Part shown: positions 1 to 46,475 of the stretch, piece by piece
Layout of the letters: the number at the start of each line of letters is the position of its first letter
Numbering within the stretch: the stretch's first letter is position 1
Virus record (IMG/VR): IMGVR_UViG_3300028864_000017
Strand: one strand, 5' to 3'
DNA: 64,000 nt
Origin: a virus
Lineage: Duplodnaviria > Caudoviricetes
The notes under the pieces: model-generated
What the model saw: only the letters and a program-made list of their open reading frames with translations
What the model was told of the DNA's origin: nothing
Databases searched by the model: none
Translations under genes and position numbers: made by a program

Positions 1-1614
1 AATTCTAATTGTGATTATCCTTATAAATTAAACAATTCAATTAATATTGGAGATACTTTTAATTCTACTTGTAATGTGTTTAGTTTAATGCCAACTGAGG
101 TAGAAAAAAACTTAGACTATTTTTATAGAATAGGAAATTTTTTCTCAGGAACTACTGATAATATTGTAAAATATTTAAATCAAACTACTAATATTGAAGT
201 TGATTTTATGGAAATTTATAGTAAAAAATTTAACTTAGAATTATATTTAAATTCTGATATTGACTATTTTGATTATTTTTTCAAAAATAAGTCAAATTTC
301 ACTATTGATGATATTGATTATGTTAAACAAACATTAAAATATTCTACTTTTCAATCTGGTGATAACTATACTGCATCCAATACATTATTTAAAGGATTAA
401 ATATTAATGCGTTAAATGTATCAAATGTATCAAGAGATATCAACGGAAGAATAATAAACATAGTTGCTGATAATAGTAAAAATTTCAATAATTATAAATT
501 TTCAATTATTCTAAATGATGTTTATGAATATTATGTTGATGGATCATATGATTCAACTTATGAAAACGGATTATCTAATAATAAAGTAATAGATAAAACA
601 TCAAATTCCATCCATGTTATTTTAAATGAAAAATTTAAGAATTTTTTAATAGTTATTAATGTTAAAATTCCAATACAAAAAAAATATGTAAATATAAATA
701 ATGTTGCTATTTTTGGAGAAAAATTTGGATTATATAATTCTAAAACATTAGATGGACATAGTTTATCATATCCTGCAACCAATGTTAATGATTTTGATTC
801 ATCTTTAATTGTAGCTTCTAATATATTTGATGCATTTGATGATATGAATACATTATCTGAATTTGATTCTGGTATAACATACTACTATGTTAATTCAATT
901 GGACAATCTGGATATACACATCCAATGAATATCACAGGAGGTACAATGAAAAATGTATCAGATTGGACTAAAAATTATCCACCTTTTATTTTTACATTTA
1001 ATGATCCAAAATTATTAGAAACAAATCAAAACTCTTATATTAAAAGTTCAATAAAAGGACCATCAGTTAATATTTATGATAAATATCAAATTTATTATGA
1101 CAATAATAAAAAACAAAAATATAATGTAACAGATCCTTTAGCAAGATCAATGTATCTAAATAATAATGAAACTATAATGAATACATCAAATGGAGTATCA
1201 TCAACGAATTCAATATATAGATATAACGGATCATACGAACCAATATTCAATAATGTGTCAATATTTAATAATGTATCTTTATATTTATCTGGTGATACTA
1301 TAAAATCATGGAATTCAAATTATAAATTTGATACAACATATGAAAATTTTGGAAGAATAGAAGAGTTGATGTATTCAAAAATAAATCCTATATCATCGCC
1401 ATTAAAATTGAAAAATACTGATACTGATTTATCAATTTACCCAATGGTGGATGAATTCGGTTATGAGTTCAGTTCAAGATTTATATTTAATTCATCTTGG
1501 GATAAAGATTTTTATGTTATTACTAATAGTGATCAAAATATGAATAATAATATATTTTCTAATTATTCTCATGTGGAATATATAATAGATCCTATAAAAA
1601 CTATAAATGATTAA
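1..1614 (+). CDS. Large putative virion structural protein, 5'-truncated by the window edge
   Basis: Frame is open from base 1 into the 76..1614 ORF; N/S/T/Y-rich; lies in a structural-type block. Confidence 0.5.
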   Translation, partial: NSNCDYPYKLNNSINIGDTFNSTCNVFSLMPTEVEKNLDYFYRIGNFFSGTTDNIVKYLNQTTNIEVDFMEIYSKKFNLELYLNSDIDYFDYFFKNKSNFTIDDIDYVKQTLKYSTFQSGDNYTASNTLFKGLNINALNVSNVSRDINGRIINIVADNSKNFNNYKFSIILNDVYEYYVDGSYDSTYENGLSNNKVIDKTSNSIHVILNEKFKNFLIVINVKIPIQKKYVNINNVAIFGEKFGLYNSKTLDGHSLSYPATNVNDFDSSLIVASNIFDAFDDMNTLSEFDSGITYYYVNSIGQSGYTHPMNITGGTMKNVSDWTKNYPPFIFTFNDPKLLETNQNSYIKSSIKGPSVNIYDKYQIYYDNNKKQKYNVTDPLARSMYLNNNETIMNTSNGVSSTNSIYRYNGSYEPIFNNVSIFNNVSLYLSGDTIKSWNSNYKFDTTYENFGRIEELMYSKINPISSPLKLKNTDTDLSIYPMVDEFGYEFSSRFIFNSSWDKDFYVITNSDQNMNNNIFSNYSHVEYIIDPIKTIND

Positions 1615-1940
1615 TGAAAAATATTAAGCAATTCGAATCTTATCTATATGAATCTGAGAGTTATTGGCTTTTACCAACTGATGATAGATTTAAAAAATCT
1701 CTAATTCAAATAAAATGTGATAGAGACAAAATGAAAGAATTTTTGAATAATAGTAGAATACGAAATATGAAATATGTATTTATTTGTTATAAGCCATATT
1801 CACTTAACGAATGGGGTTGGAATCCATATAATGGTAAAATGACTAATGATTCATTTGAATCTGATAATTATCAATTTATGGGCACTGTAAATATAGATTT
1901 AAATGATGTAGAAATAGCAGTAAATAAATTTAACTTATAA
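1614..1940 (+). CDS. Small paralog 1 of tandem array (N-leader + KFNL tag)
   Basis: MKNIKQFE...YWLLPTDDRF...WGWN...AVNKFNL*. Confidence 0.8.
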   Translation: MKNIKQFESYLYESESYWLLPTDDRFKKSLIQIKCDRDKMKEFLNNSRIRNMKYVFICYKPYSLNEWGWNPYNGKMTNDSFESDNYQFMGTVNIDLNDVEIAVNKFNL

Positions 1941-2281
1941 TGAAATATATTAAAAAATTTGAAAAATATAGTCAAAAAATGTATTGGCTAATACCAACAG
2001 ATAAAAGATTTAAAAAATCACTAAAACAATTGAATTTCTCTATTGAAAAAATAAAAGGTTTTTCAAATAGCAAAGAAATAAAAAAACATAATTATATATT
2101 TGTAGGTTATAATCCAAATCTAAATTCAAATAATAATAATAATATTGATGATTATAATTGGGGCTGGAATAGATACAGAGGTAAGCCAACTGAAGATTAT
2201 TATGAAGATAATAATTATAAATTTATGGGTAATATAAACATAGATGAATCTGAATTCGCCGCAAATAAATTTAACTTATAA
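1940..2281 (+). CDS. Small paralog 2 of tandem array (N-leader + KFNL tag)
   Basis: MKYIKKFE...YWLIPTDKRF...WGWN...AANKFNL*. Confidence 0.8.
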   Translation: MKYIKKFEKYSQKMYWLIPTDKRFKKSLKQLNFSIEKIKGFSNSKEIKKHNYIFVGYNPNLNSNNNNNIDDYNWGWNRYRGKPTEDYYEDNNYKFMGNINIDESEFAANKFNL

Positions 2282-2616
2282 TGAAATATATTAAAAAATT
2301 CGAAAATAAAAGAAATTCTAAAAGGAAATATTGGTTACTTCCAACTGATGATAGATTTGTAAAATCATTAAAACAAATAAATTGTACAGATAGAAAAATA
2401 AGGGGATTTTTAGATAGTAGCAGCTTAAAAGAATGTAAATATATATTTGTTGGATATGACAATTCTAATAACAATTTTAATGTGGATGATAAATGGGGTT
2501 GGAATGAATATAAAAATAAATTGACTGATAATTATTATGAAGATAATAATTATAAATTTATGGGTATTGTAAATATAGATGATTCAGAATTAGCAGCAAA
2601 TAAATTTAATATATAA
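2281..2616 (+). CDS. Small paralog 3 of tandem array (N-leader + KFNI tag)
   Basis: MKYIKKFE...YWLLPTDDRF...WGWN...AANKFNI*. Confidence 0.8.
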   Translation: MKYIKKFENKRNSKRKYWLLPTDDRFVKSLKQINCTDRKIRGFLDSSSLKECKYIFVGYDNSNNNFNVDDKWGWNEYKNKLTDNYYEDNNYKFMGIVNIDDSELAANKFNI

Positions 2617-2619
2617 AAT

Positions 2620-2967
2620 ATGAAATATTTAAAATTCTTTGAAGATGATTTATATGATGATACAATATATTGGTTAGTTCCAACAGATAAAAGATTCAAA
2701 AATTCTCTAAAACAAATAAGTTGTCCTAAAGACAGAATTCAAAATTATGTTAAGTATGCATTGGAAAATGTATTAACAATAAAAGATTATAGAAGAAATT
2801 ATATGTATATTGTTTATCATCCAGAATATGAACCTCTTAAAAAATGGGGATATGAGTACTATGATGAAGGTATAAATGACAAATGGATGGATAAAAAAGG
2901 TTATAAATTCGGCGGTATAATAAACATAGATGAATCTGAGTTAGTTGCTAATAAATTCAACATATAA
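2620..2967 (+). CDS. Small paralog 4 of tandem array (N-leader + KFNI tag)
   Basis: MKYLKFFE...YWLVPTDKRF...VANKFNI*. Confidence 0.8.
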   Translation: MKYLKFFEDDLYDDTIYWLVPTDKRFKNSLKQISCPKDRIQNYVKYALENVLTIKDYRRNYMYIVYHPEYEPLKKWGYEYYDEGINDKWMDKKGYKFGGIINIDESELVANKFNI

Positions 2968-2983
2968 AAAAAATTAAAAAATA

Positions 2984-3718: not shown

Positions 3719-3766
3719 ACTATACTAGTTATTTATAATACATAAAAATAAAATAAAGTAATAACT

Positions 3767-6480: not shown

Positions 6481-6514
6481 ATAAAAAAGACTGTCAATTG
6501 ACAGTCTTTTTTAT
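6481..6514. terminator. Bidirectional intrinsic terminator (perfect 34-bp palindrome)
   Basis: ataaaaaagactgtcaa|ttgacagtcttttttat between convergent genes. Confidence 0.8.
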
Positions 6515-6936
6515 ATATTGAATTTATCAGATGATTTTTTTATTAGGAAGTTATCATAATTTTCTTTTGTTAATTTTTCAATACAATTTGGAATATCTTT
6601 TTCTGTTATATCAAAATAAATATAATTAAGATTAATATCGACATCAAAAATTTCATAAATAAAATCAACAAGATTTTCATTCTCATTTAAATTTGCATGA
6701 TACACATTAATTTTAATAAACTGTAAATTCATAGTTCTCATTTTATATGAATCAATAGTCAATAATCTAAGATTATTGAAATTATTATTTATTGATATAA
6801 ATCTTCCGTTTTTTTCATAATAACATTTTAAATTATAATCAATTGAATTAATAAAATTAACTAATGATTCTGCTAATTTAATAGTAGGACTTGTTTTTTT
6901 ACTAAAAAAATCTAAAAAACTTTCATACATCATCAT
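6511..6936 (-). CDS. Hypothetical protein, KFNI tag; paralog of 6939..7352
   Basis: MMMYESFL...IEKLTKENYD.F..K.SSDKFNI*. Confidence 0.75.
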   Translation of the reverse strand: MMMYESFLDFFSKKTSPTIKLAESLVNFINSIDYNLKCYYEKNGRFISINNNFNNLRLLTIDSYKMRTMNLQFIKINVYHANLNENENLVDFIYEIFDVDINLNYIYFDITEKDIPNCIEKLTKENYDNFLIKKSSDKFNI

Positions 6937-6938: not shown

Positions 6939-7352
6939 TTATAAATTAAATTTATTTGCAGTATATTTAATGGAAAAATCATCAAAATTTTCTTTTGTTA
7001 ATTTTTTTATTACATATTTAATATCATCAATTGATACAGTAATATCTAAAATCGTCATATAATCTTTATTAAAAAGATGTAACAAAAATTCAATCACATG
7101 ACCACCTAGTATTGAATAATTCTGATTATAATGAAAATCACAATTGATATTATAGTATGATTTGTGATCACCTTTAACTATTTTAAATACAAATTTGTTC
7201 GAATTTGCATATATCCAAACATCATCATCAAATTTTTTATAACTCCAATTACATTCAGGCTTAACTATATTTAAAAAAATTATAATAGCATCAGCGAATT
7301 TAACTTCAATTGGATTAAATATTGTTTTTAAAAAACTCTCATACATCATCAT
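6939..7352 (-). CDS. Hypothetical protein, KFNL tag; paralog of 6511..6936
   Basis: MMMYESFL...IKKLTKENFD.F..KYTANKFNL*. Confidence 0.75.
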   Translation of the reverse strand: MMMYESFLKTIFNPIEVKFADAIIIFLNIVKPECNWSYKKFDDDVWIYANSNKFVFKIVKGDHKSYYNINCDFHYNQNYSILGGHVIEFLLHLFNKDYMTILDITVSIDDIKYVIKKLTKENFDDFSIKYTANKFNL

Positions 7353-7355: not shown

Positions 7356-8174
7356 TTATAAATTGAATTTTGCCATATCATCGTCCAAATTAAAAACATT
7401 AGTTATCTTACAATAGTATATAGAAGTAAATTTAATTCCTACTATTTCTTTATGCTCTTTTACTTTTGCTGTCATATATACAACATCATTTTTTCTAAGA
7501 GTTCTGCCAATATTATAAGCTATATATCTATTACCATCATCATCTATTAGTTTGCAGGTATATTGTGTTCCAAATGCGCTCTGAGTTGTATTAAAATTAT
7601 AAACAGTTGCTTTTATTTCAATTTTTTTACCAACTTCTCCTATATATTTACTTGTACTTTCTTCTTGGTTTTTCTTTGTCAATGTTTCAAAAAATAATTT
7701 TTTATATTCTTGAATTTCTTTTGCCATATCAGCATTTCCATTAAAATCTTTAGATAACCAAACAACATATTGAGGATCTTCTACAAATACTTCTCCAATT
7801 GTTTGCCCTCTATGTTTTCCAAATGTTAAGATTTTATTTTTTTCTGCTTGAAAAAGTCCAGCATATGTTCCAAATCTATCAATTATTACTTGAATCCTAC
7901 CTGAAGCTTTAGCTGCTTTTTTAACTGCAGTCATAAAGTCAGTACTTAGATTACAAATATAATAACAAGATGCAGATTTTGGATTCCATCTCCAAAATGT
8001 ATAATATACTGAGTATTTACCAGATACATCTATATAAAAACAACCAACATCTTTCATTGAATCTGGATCTTTTCCTTCTGCTAATATTTTTTCAGCTTCT
8101 TCAATTTCTTCATCACTTGGTTGAATGAGTTTAGACATTTTAGCTTCTTTGATGTATTGTAAATAATTTTTCAT
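7356..8174 (-). CDS. Multidomain protein: FGKH-type small domain + C-terminal OB-fold-like domain, tagged at both ends
   Basis: LTFGKHRGQTIGEV...PQYVVWL (exonuclease-X C-terminal/DUF3820-like); YIGEVGKKIEIKATV...DDDGNRY...VKEHKE (OB-like); ends MAKFNL*. Confidence 0.55.
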   Translation of the reverse strand: MKNYLQYIKEAKMSKLIQPSDEEIEEAEKILAEGKDPDSMKDVGCFYIDVSGKYSVYYTFWRWNPKSASCYYICNLSTDFMTAVKKAAKASGRIQVIIDRFGTYAGLFQAEKNKILTFGKHRGQTIGEVFVEDPQYVVWLSKDFNGNADMAKEIQEYKKLFFETLTKKNQEESTSKYIGEVGKKIEIKATVYNFNTTQSAFGTQYTCKLIDDDGNRYIAYNIGRTLRKNDVVYMTAKVKEHKEIVGIKFTSIYYCKITNVFNLDDDMAKFNL

Positions 8175-8178: not shown

Positions 8179-8949
8179 TTATAAATTAAATTTATTTAAA
8201 TTAAATTCTTTTTCAATATGAGTAATATTCTCTATATTATCATTATGTTCTTTCTGTTTTGATAATAATTTTTCCAATTCTTGATATTTATCAAATCCGA
8301 ATAATTTAGCGTTTTCAATTTCTTTTTTCTGATCAGAATTTAATATTATTCTATTTTTACTAATTATTTTAATTTCACGTAGACTTCCACTACTATATAT
8401 TGATATGTTATATTTATCATTAAGGTTATGTGTATCTATTATGTCATTAATTATGTTTGTTTCTTTTTCTTCTTCTATTTTTTCACTATTATTAAAACTT
8501 CTTGTTCTGAATCTAATGTAATAATATGACTTAAATTTTTCATCATTAACTTCTCTAGAAATTATATCAGACATGTGATTTCCTATTTTGGAAAAATATT
8601 TACCATTTTTCTCGTAAATAATAAATCTATTATAACCTAATTTTCCTGAATTGCAGTCATCATATATATCAATATAATCATTATTAATTATCATATTAAA
8701 CATTTTATGTAATTGAACAGTTACTGTATCTATTATAGGAATAAAGAATGATTCAGATAAATTTGAAAATCCAAAAAATGGCATTTCACATTTCACATTT
8801 AGTTCATTTTCAATATCAGTTTTAAAAATATTAAATATATTATAATCTTCAAAGTGATATGTTATCATTTTTAAATTCGAAAAAAACTCTCTAATATCAG
8901 TTATTTTTTTATTCATATAATTTTCATTGTGATGTTTGATATATTTCAT
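8179..8949 (-). CDS. Hypothetical protein with N-leader and KFNL tag
   Basis: MKYIKHHNE...NLNKFNL*. Confidence 0.7.
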   Translation of the reverse strand: MKYIKHHNENYMNKKITDIREFFSNLKMITYHFEDYNIFNIFKTDIENELNVKCEMPFFGFSNLSESFFIPIIDTVTVQLHKMFNMIINNDYIDIYDDCNSGKLGYNRFIIYEKNGKYFSKIGNHMSDIISREVNDEKFKSYYYIRFRTRSFNNSEKIEEEKETNIINDIIDTHNLNDKYNISIYSSGSLREIKIISKNRIILNSDQKKEIENAKLFGFDKYQELEKLLSKQKEHNDNIENITHIEKEFNLNKFNL

Positions 8950-8985: not shown

Positions 8986-8993
8986 CAAAGGTA
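8986..8993 (-). promoter_or_regulatory. Bacteroidota-type -7 element TACCTTTG
   Basis: Matches TAnnTTTG, 37 nt upstream of the 8949 start; no clear -33 box. Confidence 0.4.
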
Positions 8994-9016
8994 CTAAAAT
9001 CTTTGATATTTAATCT

Positions 9017-9026
9017 TATATATTAA
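9017..9026 (-). promoter_or_regulatory. Putative phage late promoter TTAATATATA
   Basis: Same motif precedes many structural or leader-tagged genes. Confidence 0.35.
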
Positions 9027-9094
9027 AAAAAAATAAACAAAAAAAAATAATATTAATACAATTTATTAATAACAAAAAAAAAATTCGATATTAT

Positions 9095-9611: not shown

Positions 9612-10472
9612 TTATTTTCCTTTCCATACTAATTTATATTCATATGTTCCTGGTAGCATTATAATTTCTCTTTGATTAGTATGATAGTATTTCTTTGGTA
9701 ACATCTGTACATCAACTAAAATGTCATCTGGTGAAGTAGTCATAACTGCAACAAATGGAGGTGTTGATGGTTCATCATCAATAAATCTAATAGCTGTTAA
9801 TATGTTAGTAGTCCAAGAAGTTGGATAATTAAAAAATGATTTTATTGTTTGTCCTTTTTTATAAGGAGAATCTACTTCTGATGAATGTACAATTTGAACT
9901 TCTTCTAATCCTTTATATATTTTTATTGATTCAGTTGGTCTAAATTGTTTCAATTCATCTATAATATTTTGTGTCAATTTTGGTAATCTTAATGATCCTG
10001 ATATATATAAGTATAACCATCTATCAGTTTCTTCTGAATATTTTATTTTTAATCTTGATGTCTTATTTTTATCATACATTACAAATCCTCCTACAAGTTT
10101 GAAACTTACTACATCATTAACATCTTCTATATAAATTTGCCAATCATTCATATAATTCTTTAAAAAATATCCAGAATAACCAGAATGTTCATCTTTAATG
10201 TCCTTCTTATCACTAAAAATATCTTCATCATCTATCATATCAATAAGTCTTTTCTTTTTGTATATTGGCTTATTTAATTTAATTTGATAAATATATTCAC
10301 TACCTGTATCTGAAGCATCTGCTCTATTATATGGAAATATTAAAGCTTTACTAAAATTTTTTTTAGTCAAAGGTTTATCAGAGTATGCATATAAAAAACC
10401 GTCATATTCATCTATTTCATCAAAATCAGTTTCTTTATAATCTACTATTTCATATTTCTTAATATATTTCAT
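9612..10472 (-). CDS. Putative ADP-ribosyltransferase-fold protein with N-terminal leader
   Basis: C-terminal IYKG...PTSWTTNILTAIRF...NQREII resembles the R-STS-QxE ART pattern (R replaced by K); starts MKYIKKYE. Confidence 0.55.
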   Translation of the reverse strand: MKYIKKYEIVDYKETDFDEIDEYDGFLYAYSDKPLTKKNFSKALIFPYNRADASDTGSEYIYQIKLNKPIYKKKRLIDMIDDEDIFSDKKDIKDEHSGYSGYFLKNYMNDWQIYIEDVNDVVSFKLVGGFVMYDKNKTSRLKIKYSEETDRWLYLYISGSLRLPKLTQNIIDELKQFRPTESIKIYKGLEEVQIVHSSEVDSPYKKGQTIKSFFNYPTSWTTNILTAIRFIDDEPSTPPFVAVMTTSPDDILVDVQMLPKKYYHTNQREIIMLPGTYEYKLVWKGK

Positions 10473-10822
10473 ATGTTAAACTTATTTGTCTCTTTTTCTA
10501 ATTTGAATTGTTTTATATCTTGTTTTGTGACTTCAATTTCTCCTTGATACTCAAATCTACCTCGTTCTATATTACCTTTAACATATTCATCATAAATACA
10601 CCATTTAAAGTTATTAAAATTTCTATTTGGATCATATGTTATATAAATTTTATTATTCTTTTTTTTGTATGTGTACATTGAAAATGTTTCATCATCTTTA
10701 ATGTTTTTATAACAATTTAATGCATCAATTTTTTTCATACTTATTTCAAAATATGGCTCACGTACATTAACTACCCAATATTTTTTTTCATTAATACCTT
10801 CAAAAAATTTTATGTATTTCAT
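10469..10822 (-). CDS. Distant member of the 1614-2967 paralog family (leader + KFNI tag)
   Basis: Preferred start MKYIKFFE at 10822; KKYWVV...IYITY...W...FEYQGEIEV...TNKFNI*. Confidence 0.7.
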   Translation of the reverse strand: MKYIKFFEGINEKKYWVVNVREPYFEISMKKIDALNCYKNIKDDETFSMYTYKKKNNKIYITYDPNRNFNNFKWCIYDEYVKGNIERGRFEYQGEIEVTKQDIKQFKLEKETNKFNI

Positions 10823-13308
10823 TCCCATCTATCATTATAAATATTTTTAGTGAATAATTTTTTAGTAGCATTATCTGCTAATATCAAATTATTAGAATCT
10901 TGCACAACTCTCTGTAACAATAAATTAGATTTAGATTCATCAGGAATTACATCATCATATATTCTAATATTAGTTAATTTAATATCAGATGAATTTATTG
11001 TTATAGTTTGATCTATATTAAATGTGTTTAATGGAACAACAGAATTATTATATCCATCAACATATTTTATTGATGCAAGTTTATATAAACTAGTATCAGG
11101 TAATCTGGTAGCTATTTCAGTATTTTTAACTGGTCTATATCCATTTGAGTTATAATATGTAATACCAGATGTGTTAGTATTATCTAATATAACACTCTTA
11201 TAATCATGTGTAAACATTGTTATTTTATAATTGTATCTTCTTTTAAATAAATCTAAACTCACTTCTCTTTGTCTATTATCTAAATTTACAGTTAAACCGT
11301 ACCACATATTTGTTGTTAATCCTGTTGCAGTTAAACTATAATCAATATTATTTATAGTTAATGAAATTTTACTATTTTTATATGATAATTTATATCCTTT
11401 GTTATTAATTGAATCATAATTATTTAAAAATTCGAAATTACTAGTACTATTGATATTATATGACCTAAATGTACTTTCATCAATTGCTTTATTTGTATCG
11501 TAAATATTATTAAAATTGAACCAAACATTAAATGATCTATTATCACTAACTTTCAAATTTGAATCTTTGTAAGTATATGACACGGCTGTAATTCCAGATG
11601 GTAAAGAAGATAAATTATAATAACTATCAGCTATTTTTATATCCTTTAAAGAATTATAAATATCCTTTTTAATTATATTTAATTTAGGATTTACATTTAA
11701 TCTATAAACTTCATGTGTAATTGGTTTTAATTGTTTACTTACTATTTTATCTTCTTGCTCTCTTATCTCAACTCCAAATAATGAATCAATAGTATTATTA
11801 TTTGTTAATATATCTATCAAATTTGTTGATTTAGTAGAAAGATTTTTTTCATTTGCAAGTTTTTCATATTTTTCAAGTACAACATTATAATAAATACCCA
11901 TATACATCACATCTCTTTTTACTTGAGCACTTTTTACTCTGTACATACGATTTGCCTGGCAAAAAAATATTATATCTTTTTGTGACGGTCTTTTTTCAAT
12001 TCCAAACGCATTATGAAATTCATCTTTTAGTATTATAACTTGAAAGGTGTCCATCATATCTAGCATATATTCATTCACTTGAACTTGATTATCAGGAAAT
12101 GTATTTTCAGGTACTATTATTTTAATTTTTTGTGTATCTACTATATTATATAATTGATATTCATGAAGAATACTATCAATTCCTTTTCCGTCTGGATCTG
12201 TTAAATGATAATCAACTGTCCATCCGAATATTTTACCTACAGTGTTTGCTAAATATGCATACCAATTACCAATTTTAATAGATCCAGCATATGGATTAAA
12301 AATACCATCTGATGCTGCTGTTTGGGTTGAATTGAATCCAGGATCATTAACTTGTGAGCTTAACTTTGTTACTACATTTCCTGATAAATAACAACTCAAT
12401 CCCTTTGTTATCCAATCTCTATTATAATCAATTGCTCCTCCAGTTTGATAAATTGTTGTTCCACATAAACATATAGCATTTGGATTATCAACATAATCAA
12501 TGGTTGTACCAGTATTTAGGGATGGATATGTCAAAGAGCAATCCTCTCTAACTCCATATCTATTAAGTTTAAGATAATTTTTATTAATATTTTGAAAATC
12601 TCCTAATAATATTATATCGTATATTTTAGATGTAATTCCATTTGTTTTTTTAGAAACAGAATATTCAACTTGAGCAAATCTGATAGGATTTATTTTTACT
12701 GTTGATATATTTTCAGTTGTTAAAGGTTCCCATGGAGTATATGTTCTACCATTATCTTGAGTAAATCTATATTTAATTTGTAAATTATTTGTATTTACAC
12801 CATAAACTTCATATCCTGTTAATTTGAAAACTTTATAAATATTTTTAGGACTAAATATTATAAAATCATCATCTGGTATATCGACAATGGTATCAGTTTC
12901 CTCAATATTATAAGTTCCTTCAATTACAATTGTGTTTATTGCTAATGTAGGTATTGTATCAATATTTTCATCAATTCTATAATATGATAGATTTAAATAT
13001 AAGTCATTCAATGCACAATACACTTGAGTAATTCCTGTAATAGGCATAGATTCACTATAGCTCACTTCACTATAACTTACTCCACTTCTTAAATTACTAT
13101 AAGAAAAATATTTTTTAAAATAATGTTCATCTGTTTCACCTTTTATTACATCTGTGAAATTTGTAATTGATGATATACTTTTTAATGGTACAATTGAAAA
13201 TGTTTTAATATCACGAAGTTGAGTTGAGATTTCATCTGTATACATTGGAGCACCTATCCAACTCATTGTAAATGTACCATCAAATTTAGGCGTATAAATA
13301 TATCTCAT
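10819..13308 (-). CDS. Extended T4 gp14-like neck/head-completion protein with extra N- and C-terminal domains
   Basis: Central FG..VDY..TDP...D.IL.EY.LYN...VPEN.FP...F...FG...RP..KDII.F...RMY.V pattern; C-terminal LamG-like strands (FNVWF, WYGLTVNL, LTNIRIYD). Confidence 0.55.
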   Translation of the reverse strand: MRYIYTPKFDGTFTMSWIGAPMYTDEISTQLRDIKTFSIVPLKSISSITNFTDVIKGETDEHYFKKYFSYSNLRSGVSYSEVSYSESMPITGITQVYCALNDLYLNLSYYRIDENIDTIPTLAINTIVIEGTYNIEETDTIVDIPDDDFIIFSPKNIYKVFKLTGYEVYGVNTNNLQIKYRFTQDNGRTYTPWEPLTTENISTVKINPIRFAQVEYSVSKKTNGITSKIYDIILLGDFQNINKNYLKLNRYGVREDCSLTYPSLNTGTTIDYVDNPNAICLCGTTIYQTGGAIDYNRDWITKGLSCYLSGNVVTKLSSQVNDPGFNSTQTAASDGIFNPYAGSIKIGNWYAYLANTVGKIFGWTVDYHLTDPDGKGIDSILHEYQLYNIVDTQKIKIIVPENTFPDNQVQVNEYMLDMMDTFQVIILKDEFHNAFGIEKRPSQKDIIFFCQANRMYRVKSAQVKRDVMYMGIYYNVVLEKYEKLANEKNLSTKSTNLIDILTNNNTIDSLFGVEIREQEDKIVSKQLKPITHEVYRLNVNPKLNIIKKDIYNSLKDIKIADSYYNLSSLPSGITAVSYTYKDSNLKVSDNRSFNVWFNFNNIYDTNKAIDESTFRSYNINSTSNFEFLNNYDSINNKGYKLSYKNSKISLTINNIDYSLTATGLTTNMWYGLTVNLDNRQREVSLDLFKRRYNYKITMFTHDYKSVILDNTNTSGITYYNSNGYRPVKNTEIATRLPDTSLYKLASIKYVDGYNNSVVPLNTFNIDQTITINSSDIKLTNIRIYDDVIPDESKSNLLLQRVVQDSNNLILADNATKKLFTKNIYNDRWE

Positions 13309-16352: not shown

Positions 16353-18359
16353 ATGAGTGAATGGATATTGGAATATGAAAATGGTGGAAACATAAGAAAA
16401 AAACTAAATGACTTAAAATATACAGTTGATTCAATTGTTGAATCTGGAAGAACATCTACATCAGGAACAGATGGTACAACAGGTATCTCAGGAACAGATG
16501 GAACATCAGGAACATCAGGTAGTTCTGGAACATCAGGAACATCAGGTAGCTCAGGAACATCAGGTTCATCAGGTAGCTCAGGAACATCAGGAAGCTCTGG
16601 CTCATCAGGAACATCAGGTTCATCAGGAAGCTCTGGCTCATCAGGAACTTCAGGTACAGATGGAACATCAGGAAGCTCAGGAACATCAGGAAGCTCTGGT
16701 TCATCAGGTAGCTCAGGATCGTCAGGTACAGATGGAACATCAGGTTCATCAGGTAGCTCAGGATCGTCAGGTACAGATGGAACATCAGGTAGCTCAGGTT
16801 CATCAGGTAGCTCAGGAACATCAGGCACAGATGGTACATCAGGTACATCAGGAAGCTCTGGCTCATCAGGTAGTTCTGGTAGTTCAGGAACATCAGGCAC
16901 AGATGGTACATCAGGCACAGGCTTTGATACAGTAACTAATTACTCAAATAATAGAATATTAAAATCTGATGGTACTACAAACGGCGCATATGCTGATAGT
17001 GGATTAACATATAATGGATTAACATTAGAAGTAAATGGAGGAATTAATTCAACTGAAAATATAATATCAAAAGGAAGCATAATTTCTGCTATTGTATCAG
17101 TAACAGGAGGTACATCAAATCAATTTTTAAAAGCAGATGGTTCTATTGATTCAACATCATATTCTAATACTAATCATAATCATTATCAATTATATCAACC
17201 TAATGGATTAAATCCTTTTGTATATACTGATAACGGAGGATCATTTCATATTGATGGAAATATTATACAGTCAGGAACAACTTATGAAACTCATTCTGAA
17301 CAAATATTTACAACGAAAGATTATATAATATTAAGAAGTGGAGCAACAACAGGATTATCAGAAGGTGAATATACTGGATTTGAATCTGTAAAATATGATG
17401 GATTGAGTAATGGTAGATTAGTTTTTGATAATCATGGTATAGCTAGAGTAGGAGATATTGGATATGAACAACCTCTATCTACAAGAGAAGAAATTCCAAC
17501 AGATAATTATTTGGCTATTTGGAACTCTGGCAAAACAAGATTTGAATCTATAAATCCAATAGATTTACCTGTTTCAACACAGACTATAAATTTAATTAGT
17601 GATGAGACTATTAGTAGAATAAGCGGAGATACTATATTAACTAATTTAATAAGTGATGAAACATTCAATAGACTGTCTGGTGATACTTCATTAACAAGCA
17701 TAATAAGTGATGAAACATCTAATAGAATAAGCGGATATACATCATTAAATAATTTAATAAGTGATGAAACATTCAATAGAATAAGCGGATATACATATTT
17801 AAACAATTTAATTACAGGAGAAACATTTAATAGAATTTCTGGTGAAACATCATTAACAAACTTAATAAGCGATGAGACTATTGACAGAATAAGTGGAGAT
17901 ACACAATTGAATAACTTAATTACAGGAATAACACAAAATATTATTAATTATATTCCTTATACTGGTTCAACTTCAAATGTTGATTTAGGTAATAATAATA
18001 TTTCAGCCAGTTTATTTATTAAATCAGGAGGAACATCATCTCAATTCTTAAAAGCTAACGGTACGGTAGATAGTAATTATTATATAAATGCAACAATAAT
18101 AAATACAATATCTATATTAATTTTAAATTGGTCTAGTTCTGTAAATGCGAACGGTTTTTATTATTATACAATATCAGATACAAATGTATCAATAACATCA
18201 TGGATAGATGCAGTATTTTCAAATTTGAACTCATCTGATGTTTCAAGTTCTGGAATACAACCATCTATAACAACAGCATCAGGAAGTTTTATAATAGAAT
18301 CAACTTCTGTACCAAAAACTGATTTAACATTAACATACAAAATAATAGGAGGAATATAA
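16353..18359 (+). CDS. Tail-fibre-like protein with GTSGSS low-complexity repeats and 18-aa helical repeats
   Basis: About 155 aa of G-[TS]-[SD] triplets; GGTSxQFLKAxG twice; six LISDETxxRISGxTxLxN repeats. Confidence 0.7.
   Translation: MSEWILEYENGGNIRKKLNDLKYTVDSIVESGRTSTSGTDGTTGISGTDGTSGTSGSSGTSGTSGSSGTSGSSGSSGTSGSSGSSGTSGSSGSSGSSGTSGTDGTSGSSGTSGSSGSSGSSGSSGTDGTSGSSGSSGSSGTDGTSGSSGSSGSSGTSGTDGTSGTSGSSGSSGSSGSSGTSGTDGTSGTGFDTVTNYSNNRILKSDGTTNGAYADSGLTYNGLTLEVNGGINSTENIISKGSIISAIVSVTGGTSNQFLKADGSIDSTSYSNTNHNHYQLYQPNGLNPFVYTDNGGSFHIDGNIIQSGTTYETHSEQIFTTKDYIILRSGATTGLSEGEYTGFESVKYDGLSNGRLVFDNHGIARVGDIGYEQPLSTREEIPTDNYLAIWNSGKTRFESINPIDLPVSTQTINLISDETISRISGDTILTNLISDETFNRLSGDTSLTSIISDETSNRISGYTSLNNLISDETFNRISGYTYLNNLITGETFNRISGETSLTNLISDETIDRISGDTQLNNLITGITQNIINYIPYTGSTSNVDLGNNNISASLFIKSGGTSSQFLKANGTVDSNYYINATIINTISILILNWSSSVNANGFYYYTISDTNVSITSWIDAVFSNLNSSDVSSSGIQPSITTASGSFIIESTSVPKTDLTLTYKIIGGI
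16452..16922 (+). repeat. 9-bp-period coding repeat (tcaggaaca/tcaggtagc/gatggaaca...) encoding GTS/GSS/GTD
   Basis: Directly visible tandem 9-mers. Confidence 0.9.
17592..17927 (+). repeat. Six 54-bp (18-aa) tandem repeats
   Basis: LISDETISRISGDTILTN / LISDETFNRLSGDTSLTS / IISDETSNRISGYTSLNN etc. Confidence 0.85.
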
Positions 18360-20567: not shown

Positions 20568-22340
20568 ATGATTGAAAATGCAAATATTTCAGTACATCAA
20601 ATCAATACTGTAACAGGAGATTTAATTGGTAATACTAGAAAAATACTACAATGTTTAAAATTAGATCATAGCTATGACTCTTATGTAGACATATCAGTGT
20701 TTCCAGAAACTTCAATTAGTGGATATTGTTGTGGTTCTCTTTGGGATCGAGAAGATTTCATTCGTGATCAAATAACAAAATTGAAAGATATAGAAAGATA
20801 TAGAAAAGAATTGAATATGTCAGGAATTATCGTGATAGGATTTGTTTCATCTCACGGTAATAACAGAAATGGATTTCCAGTATTAAAAAATTCAGTAGCT
20901 GTTATTGATAATAATGGTATTCGTACATATGATAAACAATTATTAGCTGATACAGATCATCACGAAGATAGAAAATATTTCACAGAAGGAACTGAAACTA
21001 AAGTTTTTGAAGTTTATTTACCAAATGTAGGTAAAACTATAATTGGAACTCCAATATGTGAAGATGCATGGTTTATGAATCATCACAGAGATATTCCTCA
21101 AGAAATGGTTAACATGGGAGCAGAAATTTTGATTATTCCAAATCAATCATATTTTTATTATGGAAAGCAAAAAATTAGAAAAAATCTTTTTTCTAAAATA
21201 GCTAAAAATAATATGGTTCCTGTTGTTTCTGTAAATTCAGTTGGTTGTGGTGACATCGTTAAAAATATTATAATTTATGATGGTGGATCTCTTGTTTATA
21301 ATAGTTATGGAAGATTAATTAAAGAACTACCTAAATTTGAAGATGCAAATTCAAATTTCAAAATATCAGATTGTGATCCAATTATAGGAAGTGATGATAG
21401 TAAATATAAAGAAATAACTGATGCTATTCTATTTGAGCAAAAAGAATTCTTCAAATTGTCAGGAATTAAAAATGCTCAAGTTCATGTATCAGGAGGACTT
21501 GATTCATCTATTGTAGCAGCATTAGTTTATAAAGCTATGGGTAAAGAACATACCATATTTATTTCAAATCCATCATCATTGAATACTAAATCAAGAGATT
21601 ATGTGACTCAATTAGATGAAAAATTAGGAACTACTACCTATTGGCAACCAATTCAATCTACTGTCAATGAAATATTAGAAGTTGATAAAATTCATATGAG
21701 TGATGCTCCTGAATTAAGTGATACAGGTAAAGCATCAATACATGCAGTGTTAAGAACTGTACTAGGATTAGAAGATACTCACAGATTTAAAAGTGGCATT
21801 GTTTCAACAGGTAATCATACTGAGATCGTTTTGGGTTGGGCATCCTTCCATGATATTGGTTCAATTGGTGTTCATGCTATAATTGGAGATTTAACAAAAG
21901 TTGAATTGTATGAATTATCAGATTATATTAACACTGAATTATATAAAGATGAAATTGTGCCTTTTGATTTATATAATGGAAAATTTAAACCTGCCGCAGA
22001 ATTACCTGATGCAAATGAAGATCCAATTGATTATTGGGTACAAAGTGGAATATGTGCATCTTTAATTCGTGATAGAATGACAAGAGATGATTTAATTTTG
22101 AATTATAAAAATCATTCATTGAATATTGACTATTTTCCTAAAATGGAGGAAGTTTATAAATATGATATTAAACAATGGGATGAGCAAGTTAATTTTGCAG
22201 TTAGTAAAATGAAAATATCAGTATATAAAGCTGCTCAAAGTTCTCCAATTGTTATCATGAGTCCAAGGAGCAGAGGATTTAGTAATCGTGAAACATTAAT
22301 TAATAAATATACACCAATTAATACAGTATCTTTAGATTAA
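20568..22340 (+). CDS. nadE: Glutamine-dependent NAD+ synthetase (nitrilase domain + NadE domain)
   Basis: Nitrilase triad motifs FPET / YDKQLL / ICED; PP-loop SGGLDS; TGNHTE; GDLTK; KPAAEL. Confidence 0.85.
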   Translation: MIENANISVHQINTVTGDLIGNTRKILQCLKLDHSYDSYVDISVFPETSISGYCCGSLWDREDFIRDQITKLKDIERYRKELNMSGIIVIGFVSSHGNNRNGFPVLKNSVAVIDNNGIRTYDKQLLADTDHHEDRKYFTEGTETKVFEVYLPNVGKTIIGTPICEDAWFMNHHRDIPQEMVNMGAEILIIPNQSYFYYGKQKIRKNLFSKIAKNNMVPVVSVNSVGCGDIVKNIIIYDGGSLVYNSYGRLIKELPKFEDANSNFKISDCDPIIGSDDSKYKEITDAILFEQKEFFKLSGIKNAQVHVSGGLDSSIVAALVYKAMGKEHTIFISNPSSLNTKSRDYVTQLDEKLGTTTYWQPIQSTVNEILEVDKIHMSDAPELSDTGKASIHAVLRTVLGLEDTHRFKSGIVSTGNHTEIVLGWASFHDIGSIGVHAIIGDLTKVELYELSDYINTELYKDEIVPFDLYNGKFKPAAELPDANEDPIDYWVQSGICASLIRDRMTRDDLILNYKNHSLNIDYFPKMEEVYKYDIKQWDEQVNFAVSKMKISVYKAAQSSPIVIMSPRSRGFSNRETLINKYTPINTVSLD

Positions 22341-40180: not shown

Positions 40181-40191
40181 ACAGTTAAATA

Positions 40192-42120: not shown

Positions 42121-42130
42121 ATTATTTTTT

Positions 42131-42140
42131 TTATATATAA
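42131..42140 (+). promoter_or_regulatory. Putative late promoter TTATATATAA
   Basis: 20 nt upstream of 42161, right after a terminator. Confidence 0.45.
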
Positions 42141-42160
42141 TAAAAAATAAAAATAATATA

Positions 42161-42742
42161 ATGAGATATATTAAAAATTATGAGGAAAAAATTAACGAAG
42201 AATTTAAAATACCTCAATTTATTAGAAATTATAAAGAAACAGGAGATTTAATAAAAGATAAAGTATATGAAAATCTTCAAATCGCAAAAGATAAAATAAA
42301 TGATCCCGAAAATATTCGTAAATTAAATGATTTTTTAGATAATGTAGAAGAGACAACTACAAAAATTTCTAATACAATGAAAAATAATAGAAATCTAAAA
42401 ATAATAGAAAATATGTTGACTGGTAGTAAATGGATTGCTATTGTAACATCAGTTTACCAATTAATATTTAATACTACAATATCACTCACTAGTTTTAGTT
42501 TAGGTGGAATAGGGGCAATTAAAATTGCATTGTTTTTATACATATTAAAATTAATAGTTAATATATTTAGGAATTATAATAATTTTATATCCTTGACAAA
42601 AGCAGCTAAAGATTTTGTCATTAATATAACCAAAATATTTAAGACTACTAATAATTCAAACAATCCTGTCATAAATAATAATTCGTCTGATAATATTAGT
42701 GAAAGTTATATTCTATATTTGACAGAAAAAGGAATTATATAA
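42161..42742 (+). CDS. Leader-tagged protein with two hydrophobic helices
   Basis: MRYIKNYEEKINEE start; WIAIVTSVYQLIF...IALFLYILKLIV. Confidence 0.65.
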   Translation: MRYIKNYEEKINEEFKIPQFIRNYKETGDLIKDKVYENLQIAKDKINDPENIRKLNDFLDNVEETTTKISNTMKNNRNLKIIENMLTGSKWIAIVTSVYQLIFNTTISLTSFSLGGIGAIKIALFLYILKLIVNIFRNYNNFISLTKAAKDFVINITKIFKTTNNSNNPVINNNSSDNISESYILYLTEKGII

Positions 42743-42756
42743 AAAAAATTGTTTTA

Positions 42757-43065
42757 ATGAATCACGTAAAATTAATTACAGAGATGTATAATAAAAATCC
42801 AGAGTATGAAACAAACTCATTTGGATGGAAAATTCCAGTAAGAAATTATATTGATGATGTATTTGATCATATATCATACATATATTGTAATGATAAACAT
42901 ATAAGTGAAAAATCATTTAATCAATTAGATGAAGCAGATTCTTATATAAAAAGTATTTTTGATAATAATTCAGAAATATTAGAAGAAATTAATAATCTTA
43001 AAGATAAAAGAATAGAGTATACAGCAGAGTTTATTTATGATAGATATTTTAAAAATGTAAATTGA
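42757..43065 (+). CDS. Hypothetical protein (leader-like start)
   Basis: MNHVKLITE. Confidence 0.6.
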   Translation: MNHVKLITEMYNKNPEYETNSFGWKIPVRNYIDDVFDHISYIYCNDKHISEKSFNQLDEADSYIKSIFDNNSEILEEINNLKDKRIEYTAEFIYDRYFKNVN

Positions 43066-43069
43066 TAAT

Positions 43070-43408
43070 ATGAAAGTAAATAAATATAAAGAATATTTAA
43101 AATTTAAAGATAAGTATGAAATTATTAGACAAGAAATTATGAATCTAATAGAAGAATATTATATTTTTAATGATAATTTCAGAATAGAACATCTTGGAGA
43201 TACAAAGCATAGCTATATGTCAATTACTAATTTAAATAAATCTGATGAAAAAGATTATGAAACTGGAGAATATTGGTATTGGGTTGAATACCACTATCCG
43301 TATGCAGATAAAAATTTTGATAAAATAAGTCAAAGTGAATTTGATGATATTATGAAATTTATAGACAATCCTGAAGTATATAAAAAAGCAAAAAAATTTA
43401 ACTTGTGA
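43070..43408 (+). CDS. Hypothetical protein with leader and KFNL tag
   Basis: MKVNKYKEY...AKKFNL*. Confidence 0.7.
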   Translation: MKVNKYKEYLKFKDKYEIIRQEIMNLIEEYYIFNDNFRIEHLGDTKHSYMSITNLNKSDEKDYETGEYWYWVEYHYPYADKNFDKISQSEFDDIMKFIDNPEVYKKAKKFNL

Positions 43409-43409
43409 T

Positions 43410-43694
43410 ATGAAAGTAAATAAATTTGAAGAAATAAACGAAAGTTCAAGAGTAAGAGGATATTATATTAATTCTGAAAATGGTGAATTAAGAACAGGAT
43501 ATACTCACAATTCTAATATTTTTTTAACTGATGAAGAATATAAAAGAATAAAAGGATTAGCAGATAGTATTAAAGCATCTTGTGAAAATTATAATGATAT
43601 GAAAGAAACTAAAATTTCAATGCTAAGAGCAGCAATACATAAAGTTAAAGATGATTCTGAATTTATGAAGACAACAAATAAATTTAATATTTAA
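43410..43694 (+). CDS. Hypothetical protein with leader and KFNI tag
   Basis: MKVNKFEEINE...TTNKFNI*. Confidence 0.7.
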   Translation: MKVNKFEEINESSRVRGYYINSENGELRTGYTHNSNIFLTDEEYKRIKGLADSIKASCENYNDMKETKISMLRAAIHKVKDDSEFMKTTNKFNI

Positions 43695-43700
43695 TTACAT

Positions 43701-44462: not shown

Positions 44463-44465
44463 TAA

Positions 44466-45092
44466 TTATTTTCTTTTAGATGCTAATATAATATCAATTG
44501 ATTTGTTGATGTCTCTATCAGAAATTCTCATATCTTTATACTTATCATGTATTTCTACTTCAGTATCTCCTATATTAATTTCCTTCAATTCTTCTTTAAG
44601 ATCTTTGAAAAACTCTTTCATACTTTTTTGTAATTTATATAGAGTCTCAATACAATCTTTCATTTCTCTTTGAAACATTGATACTGCTTGAAATAAATCT
44701 GCATCAGAACTACCATTATCTATTTGTTTCATTAGATTAATTAATCCTCTTTTAGAACAGGATATAGAGAATTTTAAATCAGAAATTGCAAGAGCATCAT
44801 TTTTAATTATGTTATTTATATTTTTATTTAACATAATATCTTCTGATAAATATAAATTTGCTATACATTCTAATGTTTCTTTTGATTCCTCTCTGATTAC
44901 TTCCAAATCTTTTTCATAATCATGCATTTCAATTTTAAAATTCAAGTCTATGTTATTATTAACTGGAAAAAACTCAGATGGATCAAAATCCAATTCTTCT
45001 TGAGCATCTTCTATTTCAGTTTTTAACTGTTCTATATTTGATTGAAATGATTCTCTGTAGTCTTGTGCGGTTGGTGTTTCACTTTTAGCCAT
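44466..45092 (-). CDS. Acidic coiled-coil hypothetical protein
   Basis: 208-aa ORF, heptad-rich. Confidence 0.65.
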   Translation of the reverse strand: MAKSETPTAQDYRESFQSNIEQLKTEIEDAQEELDFDPSEFFPVNNNIDLNFKIEMHDYEKDLEVIREESKETLECIANLYLSEDIMLNKNINNIIKNDALAISDLKFSISCSKRGLINLMKQIDNGSSDADLFQAVSMFQREMKDCIETLYKLQKSMKEFFKDLKEELKEINIGDTEVEIHDKYKDMRISDRDINKSIDIILASKRK

Positions 45093-45110
45093 AAAAATAA
45101 CTTTAATTTT

Positions 45111-45120
45111 TTAATATATA
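45111..45120 (+). promoter_or_regulatory. Putative late promoter TTAATATATA in a divergent intergenic region
   Basis: 28 nt upstream of 45149. Confidence 0.4.
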
Positions 45121-45148
45121 TAAATAAATATAAGTTAGAATATATAAT

Positions 45149-46093
45149 ATGATAAAAAAATATAACATGTTTCTATTAAATGAAAATATATCTATGTCAA
45201 ATGAAGATATAATTGAAATACTAAAATCATTAGAGACAGAAGACAATAAAAACTCTATTTTAATTAAAAGATTAGTTAATTATACTGATAAAAGTGGTAA
45301 GAATGTACTAATGAGCGTAGTATCATCTAATAATATTGATTTAATAGATTATATTTTGAAATTTGATGTAAATTTAAACCAAGTAGTAACAAGTACTGGA
45401 GAAAACGTATTATTTTTTTGTAAAAACATTAATGTATTTAAAAAATTATATGAATTAGGAGCCAATGCGAATCAAATTACTAAAATTGATCGTACAGTAT
45501 TAAATTCACTATCAAGAAAGAAATTATTTAATGTTGAGTTATATCAAAAAATAATTACAGATGATGTTGATATAAATAAAATTGATATGAATAATGAATC
45601 TGTTCTTACTGGATCTATATTAAATAAAAAAATATTGGAATTATTATTAAATAACAATGTGAATTTGAATGGATTGGATCAATCAAATTTTTTATATAGG
45701 TTATCTTATGAACTAAATTATTATCCTAAAAAACAAAATATAATATTAGACATATTTAAAATCCTATTTAAAAATGGAATGATAATTCAAAACGAGACAA
45801 ATTTTATAAATATATTAAGATTAGATTCAAATAATATAGATATTATATATGATTTCATTGTTCCACTAAATAAATATATAACTGATAATATGATAATATT
45901 AATTTATGATAAATTATGTCATGAATCTGGAATGGATAGAATAAAGATGGCTAATAAATTATTGAGATTAGGCTCATATCCTAAATTCTACAATAAGTTA
46001 AAAAATAGTTTTAGAGAACAATTCTATATCGAATTCGCTGATTATATAAAGGAGAATCCATTTTATGAAGATGCCGAAAAATTTAACTTGTAA
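45149..46093 (+). CDS. Ankyrin-repeat protein with leader and KFNL tag
   Basis: D.SGKNVLM..V..NN.D....IL..DVNLN; GENVL...ELGANAN; DINKID.NNESVL; ends AEKFNL*. Confidence 0.7.
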   Translation: MIKKYNMFLLNENISMSNEDIIEILKSLETEDNKNSILIKRLVNYTDKSGKNVLMSVVSSNNIDLIDYILKFDVNLNQVVTSTGENVLFFCKNINVFKKLYELGANANQITKIDRTVLNSLSRKKLFNVELYQKIITDDVDINKIDMNNESVLTGSILNKKILELLLNNNVNLNGLDQSNFLYRLSYELNYYPKKQNIILDIFKILFKNGMIIQNETNFINILRLDSNNIDIIYDFIVPLNKYITDNMIILIYDKLCHESGMDRIKMANKLLRLGSYPKFYNKLKNSFREQFYIEFADYIKENPFYEDAEKFNL

Positions 46094-46095
46094 TA

Positions 46096-46105
46096 TTAAT
46101 ATATA
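46096..46105 (+). promoter_or_regulatory. Putative late promoter TTAATATATA
   Basis: 7 nt upstream of ATG 46113. Confidence 0.35.
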
Positions 46106-46112
46106 CACAAAT

Positions 46113-46475
46113 ATGAAACATTTAAAAAAATTTGAGACTAATTATAACTATAGTAGCACTGAGCCATATATTATAGAATTTGAAATAGTAAATAAAATAA
46201 TTGAGTTTATTAAAACAAATAAGTTGAAATATATTGACAATATTAAAATATATGATGGTGAATATTATATAACATTAGGAAAAATTGGAAATTATGACAA
46301 TACTTTATTGAAATATAAATATCCAGGTGATGAGCCAATAGAAATTATGATAGGCATACCTAGAAATGAAGGAGTTGATATTAATAATAGTATATTAGAA
46401 CAAATAAGAAAATTAACAGAAGAAGATATTAACGTTCTACATACTAAACAAGCATCATCAAAATTTAACATATAA
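46113..46475 (+). CDS. Hypothetical protein with leader and KFNI tag
   Basis: Preferred start MKHLKKFE at 46113 (track start 46065 overlaps the previous gene); ends IRKLTEE...SSKFNI*. Confidence 0.7.
   Translation: MKHLKKFETNYNYSSTEPYIIEFEIVNKIIEFIKTNKLKYIDNIKIYDGEYYITLGKIGNYDNTLLKYKYPGDEPIEIMIGIPRNEGVDINNSILEQIRKLTEEDINVLHTKQASSKFNI

Follow-up and report, generated by a model that had tools for sequence, protein, structure and literature searches.

A stretch of viral DNA of 64,000 nucleotides (hereafter the window; Caudoviricetes, IMG/VR record IMGVR_UViG_3300028864_000017) encodes 13 proteins that share a C-terminal K-F-N-[L/I] ending, and we found that this ending, generalized to K-[FY]-N-[LI], recurs throughout related phages as the tip of an appended helix and is in most cases accompanied by a conserved N-terminal leader. 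To judge by the sequences, the two ends together look like an address label that has not been described before: a full-text literature search for the K[FY]N[LI] end motif recovered no published description, in agreement with the original prediction made from the sequence of the window, which knew of no phage tag of this form. A common reader of the label probably exists. The more complete statement, that the helix tip and the leader constitute a two-ended label recognized by one common partner, with prohead loading as its most likely purpose, is our preferred reading, and we put it a little short of an even chance.

The ending itself was recovered exactly, as KFNL or KFNI, in all 13 open reading frames (ORFs) that had been listed, when the window was read again. 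On the plus strand these comprise: four consecutive paralogous genes with a YWLxPTD body, at 1614..1940 (108 amino acids (aa), start MKNIKQFE, end NKFNL), 1940..2281 (113 aa, MKYIKKFE and NKFNL), 2281..2616 (111 aa, MKYIKKFE and NKFNI) and 2620..2967 (115 aa, MKYLKFFE and NKFNI); the neighbouring genes at 43070..43408 (112 aa, ending in DNPEVYKKAKKFNL) and 43410..43694 (94 aa, MKVNKFEE and NKFNI); a gene encoding an ankyrin-repeat body at 45149..46093 (314 aa, end EKFNL), whose Ank_2 match in Pfam (27.3 bits) equals the curated cut-off exactly; and the gene at 46113..46475 (120 aa if counted from MKHLKKFE, its likely start, with an ORF that opens at 46065; end SKFNI). On the minus strand they comprise: two paralogues with an MMMYESF body, at 6511..6936 (141 aa, DKFNI) and 6939..7352 (137 aa, NKFNL); a gene whose product contains the ExoX-like_C motif (Pfam PF20600) at 7356..8174 (272 aa, AKFNL); an orphan at 8179..8949 (256 aa, MKYIKHHNE and NKFNL); and the gene at 10469..10828 (119 aa, likely start MKYIKFFE two codons in, end NKFNI).

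The window is part of a 97,084-bp IMG/VR record (G000), which was analyzed together with a close but likewise incomplete relative of 330 kb and 594 genes (G001), a complete relative of 243 kb (G002) and further related stretches. The ending is far more frequent than chance allows, as had been supposed. In the 97-kb record, 22 of the 161 ORFs end in K[FY]N[LI], where composition predicts 0.03, or 0.06 if the composition of ORF tails is used (Poisson P ~6e-50); KFN[LI] accounts for 19 ORFs and 4 others end in KYNI, KYNL or KFSL. The count of internal K[FY]N[LI] occurrences in the same record (10 seen, 5.4 expected) was taken as no enrichment. The excess extends to the related genomes: G001 contains 101 strict ends (0.12-0.26 expected), and with the broader definition [FY]N[LIVM] 104 of its 594 genes are tagged, including the ortholog of the ankyrin gene. 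Within 20 kb of a related 286-kb contig, 49 of the 52 called genes end in [KNTI]YN[LI] and nearly all start with MK[YIH][IL]Kx[FY]E. An exact 26-nt junction pattern, with which IMG/VR was searched for further tagged arrays, matched 24 stretches of 21-26% G+C each, and in public metagenomes two of the tagged proteins have homologues in which both ends are retained at identities as low as 43%.

Most tagged proteins begin with M-K-[YH]-[IL]-K-x-[FY]-E, a leader that was absent from the original prediction. Over the 97-kb record and 24 related stretches the strict N-terminal motif is present on 124 of 190 tagged proteins and on 15 of 381 (4%) untagged ones, and this difference links both ends. In G001 it is located at residue 1 in 60 cases and deeper in 3, over a total of 101,555 residues. 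The Glu at position 8 is kept in 79%. The codon use of the leader equals that of the bodies, and in both structures that were modelled with AlphaFold2 (AF2), of a YWL protein and of a chromo-barrel protein, it has a predicted local distance difference test score (pLDDT) below 50. In a region outside the window (G000 90,197-95,188), seven proteins start with MKIRNGFVSNSSSSSF.

The proposed selection on the peptide, and not on the DNA, was borne out. In the window the tags vary only synonymously or between L and I, with AAA/AAG, TTT/TTC, AAT/AAC, TTA/TTG/ATA/ATT and TAA/TGA all present; over the 190 tagged genes the Leu codons include TTA, TTG, CTA, CTC and CTT, with Asn(-2) kept in 100% and Lys(-4) in 95% of the proteins. 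Asn(-2) is invariant although a single step separates AAT from codons for Lys, Asp, Ser, Ile and Tyr. The tail makes excess use of AAC and TAC, and the third positions of Asn and Tyr vary more than they do in the bodies, so the synonymous sites are not frozen. Biases at the DNA level were found at the last sense position (A) and at Ala(-6) (GCA preferred), the former because of the ATGA overlap with the next start. Between orthologs of G000 and G001 the last four residues are 85% identical and the leader 83%, compared to 65% for the bodies, and in all ortholog pairs listed the K-F/Y-N core is kept, with L and I interchanging. The motifs are confined to the termini: next to the lack of internal enrichment, a metagenomic fusion (P0015) of a GDYV module and a YWL body is tagged at its outer ends only, in line with the predicted dependence on a free C-terminus. 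A terminator-like hairpin with T-run (6481..6510, minus strand) directly follows the last tagged gene of the minus-strand array, and the tag is thus kept without a coupled downstream gene.

As for its extent, the K-F-N-[L/I] ending holds as described, but it is not a tag of four residues: it is the tip of an appended helix of about 12-14 residues that usually comes with the N-terminal leader. In the logo of the last 14 residues, positions -14, -13 and -11 are acidic, -12 and -10 hydrophobic and -6 small, which gives the consensus [DE][DE]-h-[DE]-h-x-x-x-[AST]-[KN]-K-[FY]-N-[LI] (h, hydrophobic); a subset of the tails has [DN]PE-x-Y upstream of K[FY]NL. The AF2 model of the protein encoded at 2281..2616 (mean pLDDT 84.5) contains an alpha/beta core (residues 15-96), a poorly defined start (residues 1-11, pLDDT <50) and a C-terminal helix (residues 101-109). 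The C-terminal end is helical in both models with the last two residues outside the helix, and the end may be a Schellman-type cap. All 15 metagenomic homologues of this protein keep both ends. That the tail is a module was seen in the family of the PF20600 protein (7356-8174): nearly all of its ~68 close homologues end in [KN][FY]N[LIM], whereas those with 30-38% identity are shorter by 12-13 residues, ending where the conserved body ends and lacking a tag, which indicates that the tail was a modular addition to a pre-existing body.

The bodies that carry the label are diverse, although less so within the window than the original prediction had it. Unrelated folds are indeed tagged, but in the window, besides the four YWLxPTD and two MMMYESF paralogues, the protein encoded at 10469 is a distant relative of the YWL type. 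Once the tags are removed, phmmer sorts the 127 tagged proteins from G000 and G001 into 62 clusters, the largest families being the chromo-barrel (29 members), ankyrin (12) and YWL (11) proteins. The label spans at least four fold types, i.e. alpha/beta (YWL, AF2), chromo- or Tudor-like barrel (AF2), ankyrin and leucine-rich repeat (LRR), and many orphans; across the tagged set we found neither a single shared fold (the models differ) nor a body homology common to all. Several tagged proteins of ~110 aa are weakly alike from end to end. A fold search with the YWL model against PDB and AFDB clusters returned nothing below E 0.1, and no membrane-like segments were found in the tagged proteins.

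The aromatic residue at -3 has a genome-specific flavour. It is Phe in 112 of the 124 tags of G000 and G001 (90%) and Tyr in all 65 tags of two related stretches (L003 and L027), of which 61 have Leu at -1. The F-type and Y-type groups hold the same body families and their synonymous sites still vary. A uniform amino acid throughout a genome in combination with DNA that is not frozen would fit a single co-evolving reader better than it fits gene conversion.

Other terminal motifs were noticed as well. A second shared C-terminal tail, [RK]xxKLxKLN[EK][IL]-like, occurs on many small proteins encoded at ~50,700-55,500 and 57,600-60,400 of the window (e.g. 54911-55243 and 57607-57840; also G000 18060-18245), several of which have a barrel-like 'VGDxVxC' start; the end differs from K[FY]N[LI], and the bodies are possibly similar to those of the K[FY]N[LI] set. 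In G002 a DPYGEE[DN]W motif recurs, either just after an MIKNF[KR]IFE leader or, on unrelated proteins, at the very C-terminal end (e.g. 146470-148532, 205775-206863 and 225363-225929).

The tagged arrays are interleaved, and coupled by their starts and stops, with very large genes. In the window, the end of an 829-aa gene (10819-13308, minus strand) is overlapped by the tagged gene 10469..10828, directly downstream of which lies a gene with a leader and no C-terminal tag (9612..10472, minus strand; 286 aa, start MKYIKKYE). Two classes of motif were found upstream of genes in G000, G001 and G002. The first is TATCTTTG-like (TAnnTTTG) and 31-fold enriched; we take it to be the -7 element of Bacteroidota promoters, and its enrichment suggests a Bacteroidota host. 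The second, a T-run followed by ATATATA, heads ~80 genes. Among genes that have an upstream gap, the second class precedes 14 of 23 tagged and 66 of 419 untagged genes, and the first class 1 of 23 and 46 of 419, respectively. Ahead of the minus-strand tagged array of the window we found a promoter-like T-run with AATATATAA (9016..9033, minus strand) and a TACCTTTG element of the first class (8986-8993, minus strand). On the plus strand, a promoter-like T-run with ATATATAA (42125..42141) precedes the operon to which 43070 and 43410 belong, the first gene of which (42161..42742; 193 aa, start MRYIKNYE) has a leader-like start and no C-terminal tag, and a promoter-like T-run with AATATATATAAATA (45107..45126) lies ahead of the ankyrin gene. 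The T-run/ATATATA motif was considered as a marker of time class and rejected as such: it precedes capsid, protease, portal-like and tail-fibre genes and those for family-B DNA polymerase (PolB) and exonuclease alike.

The leader points more specifically to a route like that of the capsid-targeting sequence (CTS) of phage T4. The internal proteins of T4 are described as a diverse defence set with only the targeting sequence in common, and the CTS of IPI-III resembles the label in that a short terminal peptide is the sole common feature of diverse small proteins (PMC3012670). Upon translation of the annotated T4 genes (NC_000866), ipII and ipIII were found to start with MKTYQEFIAE and ipI with MKTFKEF, to be compared with MK[YH][IL]Kx[FY] in the clade studied here. 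A pattern that covers these starts, ^MK.[FYILV][KQR].[FY], which was written after both the T4 and the phage sets had been seen, matched only ipI, ipII, ipIII and gp61.1 when 70 kb of T4 with 130 ORFs were scanned, and it matched 70 ORFs of G001 (61 of them C-tagged) and 11 of G000 (9 tagged). The T4 protein gp61.1 is a hypothetical protein of 54 aa (NC_000866 18966-19130, minus strand) and starts with MKTFKEFIKE, i.e. with the capsid-targeting leader pattern. Both lineages have a gp23-type capsid protein (80-85 bits in the relatives G002 and G004). The match to a prohead protease is weak in this clade: an ~800-aa ORF that adjoins the gp23-type gene has a Peptidase_S77 match with E 6e-5 to 7e-7, below the cut-off. 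Neither gene was found in the 97-kb fragment that holds the window, and the N-terminus of the capsid protein shows no obvious 'FE' cleavage site.

We therefore describe the preferred reading as a chain of conditional steps. The unstructured leader and the appended helix tip would form one two-ended label, carried by a large, fast-diversifying set of small soluble proteins, many of them binder-type modules. One common partner per phage would read it; the tagged proteins would be loaded into the prohead, as with the T4 CTS, and would travel with the DNA into the next cell. Taken separately, prohead loading is by this analogy a possible rather than a probable route. That at least 100 small binder proteins are packaged via the label and injected as a pre-made, rapidly evolving anti-defence arsenal, and thus by an enlarged, bipartite counterpart of the internal proteins of T4, is more doubtful again.

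Various observations weigh against the prohead reading. In T4 the signal is N-terminal only and the internal proteins lack a K[FY]N[LI] end; it is also used on a handful of proteins, compared to at least 100 in the tagged phage, and we know of no phage that packages upwards of 100 protein species. The leader appears to depart from the T4 protease rule (L/I at P3, Glu at P1) in that its P3 is variable (T/K/L) and its P2 is F/Y, and the leader pattern shared with T4 was drawn up with hindsight. The tagged set of G001 has a median isoelectric point of 5.3, compared to 7.7, and with such acidity cytoplasmic inhibitors would fit at least as well as proteins packed with DNA. The C-terminal helix of the chromo-barrel model (pLDDT 82-95) may belong to the fold and not be a free handle, the complete G002 contains just 4 tagged genes, all LPx-type LRR paralogues, and the searches of the phage records yielded no reader of the label. 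As the T-run/ATATATA motif also precedes the PolB and exonuclease genes, it marks phage-directed transcription and leaves late expression unproven.

Cargo loading by a C-terminal peptide is known from the encapsulins, in which a short peptide on unrelated cargo docks inside an HK97-fold shell. The phage capsid protein is of the same fold class and the tag is likewise C-terminal on unrelated proteins; encapsulin tags, however, are Gly/Ser/Leu-rich and non-helical and lack an Asn cap, whereas here a second, N-terminal motif is present. A Gly-Ser-Leu core after a flexible linker was not found in the tails, the consensus of which is acidic and modelled as a helix.

The same ends could instead serve inside the infected cell, with the variable bodies binding host targets and the tail, perhaps with the leader, tethering them to one machine, for which the candidates would be a protease, the phage Hsp70 or another chaperone, and a clamp that acts in replication or transcription. 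Docking tails of this kind are the SspB XB peptide on ClpX, the tails of T4 gp43, gp33 and gp55 on the gp45 clamp and the acidic tails of T7. They resemble the label in their position at the extreme C-terminus of unlike proteins and in an acidic stretch that is followed by an aromatic/aliphatic end; there, they occur on few functionally linked proteins, versus ~17% of the proteome here. The enrichment of the bodies in protein-binding repeats, the solubility of the tagged proteins and their mild acidity in G001, the conservation of the phage Hsp70 in G000, G001 and G002 and the genome-specific F/Y flavour, which suits any single reader, are all consistent with such tethering, and [FY]-N-[LI]-COOH fits, as a sequence pattern only, both a class II PDZ ligand (hydrophobic-x-hydrophobic) and the logic of clamp and adaptor tails. 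Nevertheless, the PDZ-like reader that had been put forward was not recovered: PDZ_2 and PDZ_6 gave no match over the cut-off in five phage records (G000-G004, including the complete G002), the records to which the search was confined, with search controls that matched in 14 of 14 genomes, and no ClpP family gene was found in the same records. In addition, the arrays lack the host-type promoter motif expected of immediate-early takeover genes, and the T4 CTS-like leader is left unexplained. We consider a docking tail of this kind unlikely.

Less likely still is that the label has no reader at all and that the ends are structural caps inherited by cassette duplication. The tail would then be an ideal helix stop with a Schellman-type cap (Lys near the C-terminal end, an aromatic residue, Asn at C' and a hydrophobic C'' that packs on Ala(-6)), and new bodies would be captured by recombination at the semi-conserved junctions of the tandem arrays. 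In line with this, the three expanded families together contribute 52 of the 127 tagged proteins pooled from G000 and G001, the end-to-end resemblance of several ~110-aa members is as expected of duplicated cassettes, the C-terminal helix is confidently modelled in the barrel family and the junction DNA is alike enough for an exact 26-nt pattern to retrieve 24 viral stretches. Yet protein chains can terminate in very many ways, so that a cap would not have to stay the same in over 60 sequence families and four types of fold, and the K, F/Y and N of the core are kept though single-base neighbours are one step away. The choice between F and Y is uniform genome-wide, unlike the synonymous sites, and this speaks against gene conversion of a simple kind; furthermore, the PF20600 body, to which the tail was appended, occurs elsewhere in a form that lacks it, and the disorder of the leader in both AF2 models does not suit a structural cap. 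A complex prediction of the YWL and chromo-barrel proteins, with head-to-tail pairing of the ends, gave no answer (score 0.00, without controls) and is evidence neither way.

The need for a free end and the invariant Asn would also suit the recognition site of a modifying enzyme with many substrates, be it a ligase that acts on the free carboxylate or an enzyme that acts on the Asn. RimK-like enzymes extend free protein C-termini, and the complete G002 encodes a RimK-like ATP-grasp protein (116663-118063; phrog_2599, 'ribosomal protein S6 glutaminyl transferase', E 1e-9). However, a gene of this type was not detected in either G000 or G001, which are both incomplete, the loci that were inspected contain no enzyme or hub gene that accompanies the arrays, and the alternation of F and Y means that the aromatic residue is not a hydroxyl acceptor, which makes such an enzyme improbable.

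Slightly more improbable is a C-terminal degron or secretion signal, i.e. timed removal by a host protease or export via a host type I-like system. Either would account for the dependence on a free end, and N-x-Y-x-L loosely resembles the core of the transfer-messenger RNA tag. The ankyrin proteins of some intracellular bacteria are described as bearing C-terminal type I secretion signals (PMC4315096). The tagged proteins, however, end in K-[FY]-N-[LI] and not in Leu-Ala-Ala or a similar ssrA-like ClpX degron, a leader is not needed for degradation or export, no exporter or protease gene was found (ClpP and PDZ family searches in the five records) and a lytic phage that exports at least 100 proteins would be without precedent. 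Finally, a nucleic-acid signal where genes adjoin, which would act in translational coupling or RNA processing or as a site of recombination and yield the peptide as a by-product, would agree with the ATGA or TAATG overlaps at most junctions and with the biases to TTA/ATA in the last sense codon and to GCA at Ala(-6), but it is highly improbable in view of tags that are kept at array ends with terminators after them, Leu codons that switch between TTA and CTN, Asn and Tyr third positions that are freer than in the bodies, a leader with background codon use and an overlap that accounts for the final A only.

The clade in which the label occurs comprises AT-rich jumbo and mega-phages that have T4-type head genes. 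The window has a G+C content of 24.7% and 0 tRNA genes, and its DNA is contained in many peat metagenomes; no RNA data set was listed for the window or for its YWL genes, which says nothing on their expression. CheckV puts the completeness of the 97,084-bp record at 14%, so the full genome may be ~0.7 Mb. The record shares 131 of its 161 proteins with G001 (median identity 76%) and encodes: a UvsW-type helicase, a family-B DNA polymerase, PhoH, RtcB, Hsp70, collagen-repeat, BspA-LRR and TIG proteins, NAD synthase and glycosyltransferases. The NAD synthase-like gene (glutamine-dependent; CN_hydrolase and NAD_synthase) is located at 20568-22340 of the window (plus strand) with a host-type promoter motif upstream, and the Hsp70/DnaK-like protein (628 aa) at 57852-59738 (plus strand; phrog_22485, E 4e-196; 55% identity in G002). 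A YWL protein had 0 tblastn matches in 50,697 deposited phage genomes, and a blastn match to a 735-kb phage was discarded since it involved a collagen-repeat stretch alone. Twelve matches of the junction pattern in bacterial genomes were likewise set aside as nearly all chance; the sole real tagged gene in the bacterial set lies on a 5.7-kb contig of 25% GC that was binned, probably wrongly, with a Muribaculaceae metagenome-assembled genome.

No family was found in Pfam, PHROG, PDB-sequence or atlas searches for the large neighbours of the tagged genes (a 512-aa fragment and proteins of 829, 1060, 417, 257 and 304 aa) or for the untagged genes inside the arrays. The block with the 829-aa gene is syntenic in four phages, and by atlas features its product resembles T4 neck-protein clusters (score 0.93-0.96), which we regard as a lead only. 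Of untagged families, only an orphan of 232 aa, which is syntenic, and the genes of 1060 and 1145 aa co-occur in the arrays. A further, greatly expanded family of ~330-600 aa, with the start MI..K.V.I..... N..YYK.LGY, has 13 copies in G001 (e.g. 110442-111431 and 150228-151868) and ~12 in G002; its members lie next to core genes, among them the capsid and protease genes with copies on either side, and have the look of selfish genes of the homing-endonuclease type.

If one partner reads the label, the combination of an MKYIKxFE start and a K[FY]N[LI] end would mark a functional class that comprises, in some phages that rank with the largest known, about one-sixth of the genes; nearly all of these genes are annotated as 'hypothetical' today. 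If the capsid route holds, giant phages would deliver large protein arsenals along with their DNA, and the two ends would serve as a portable pair of tags with which to bring foreign proteins into large capsids; if the hub is a cellular one, the tagged proteins would be a phage counterpart of effector families that have a common trafficking motif. By either route, the label would offer a handle for finding its reader and for sorting the dark matter genes of mega-phages.

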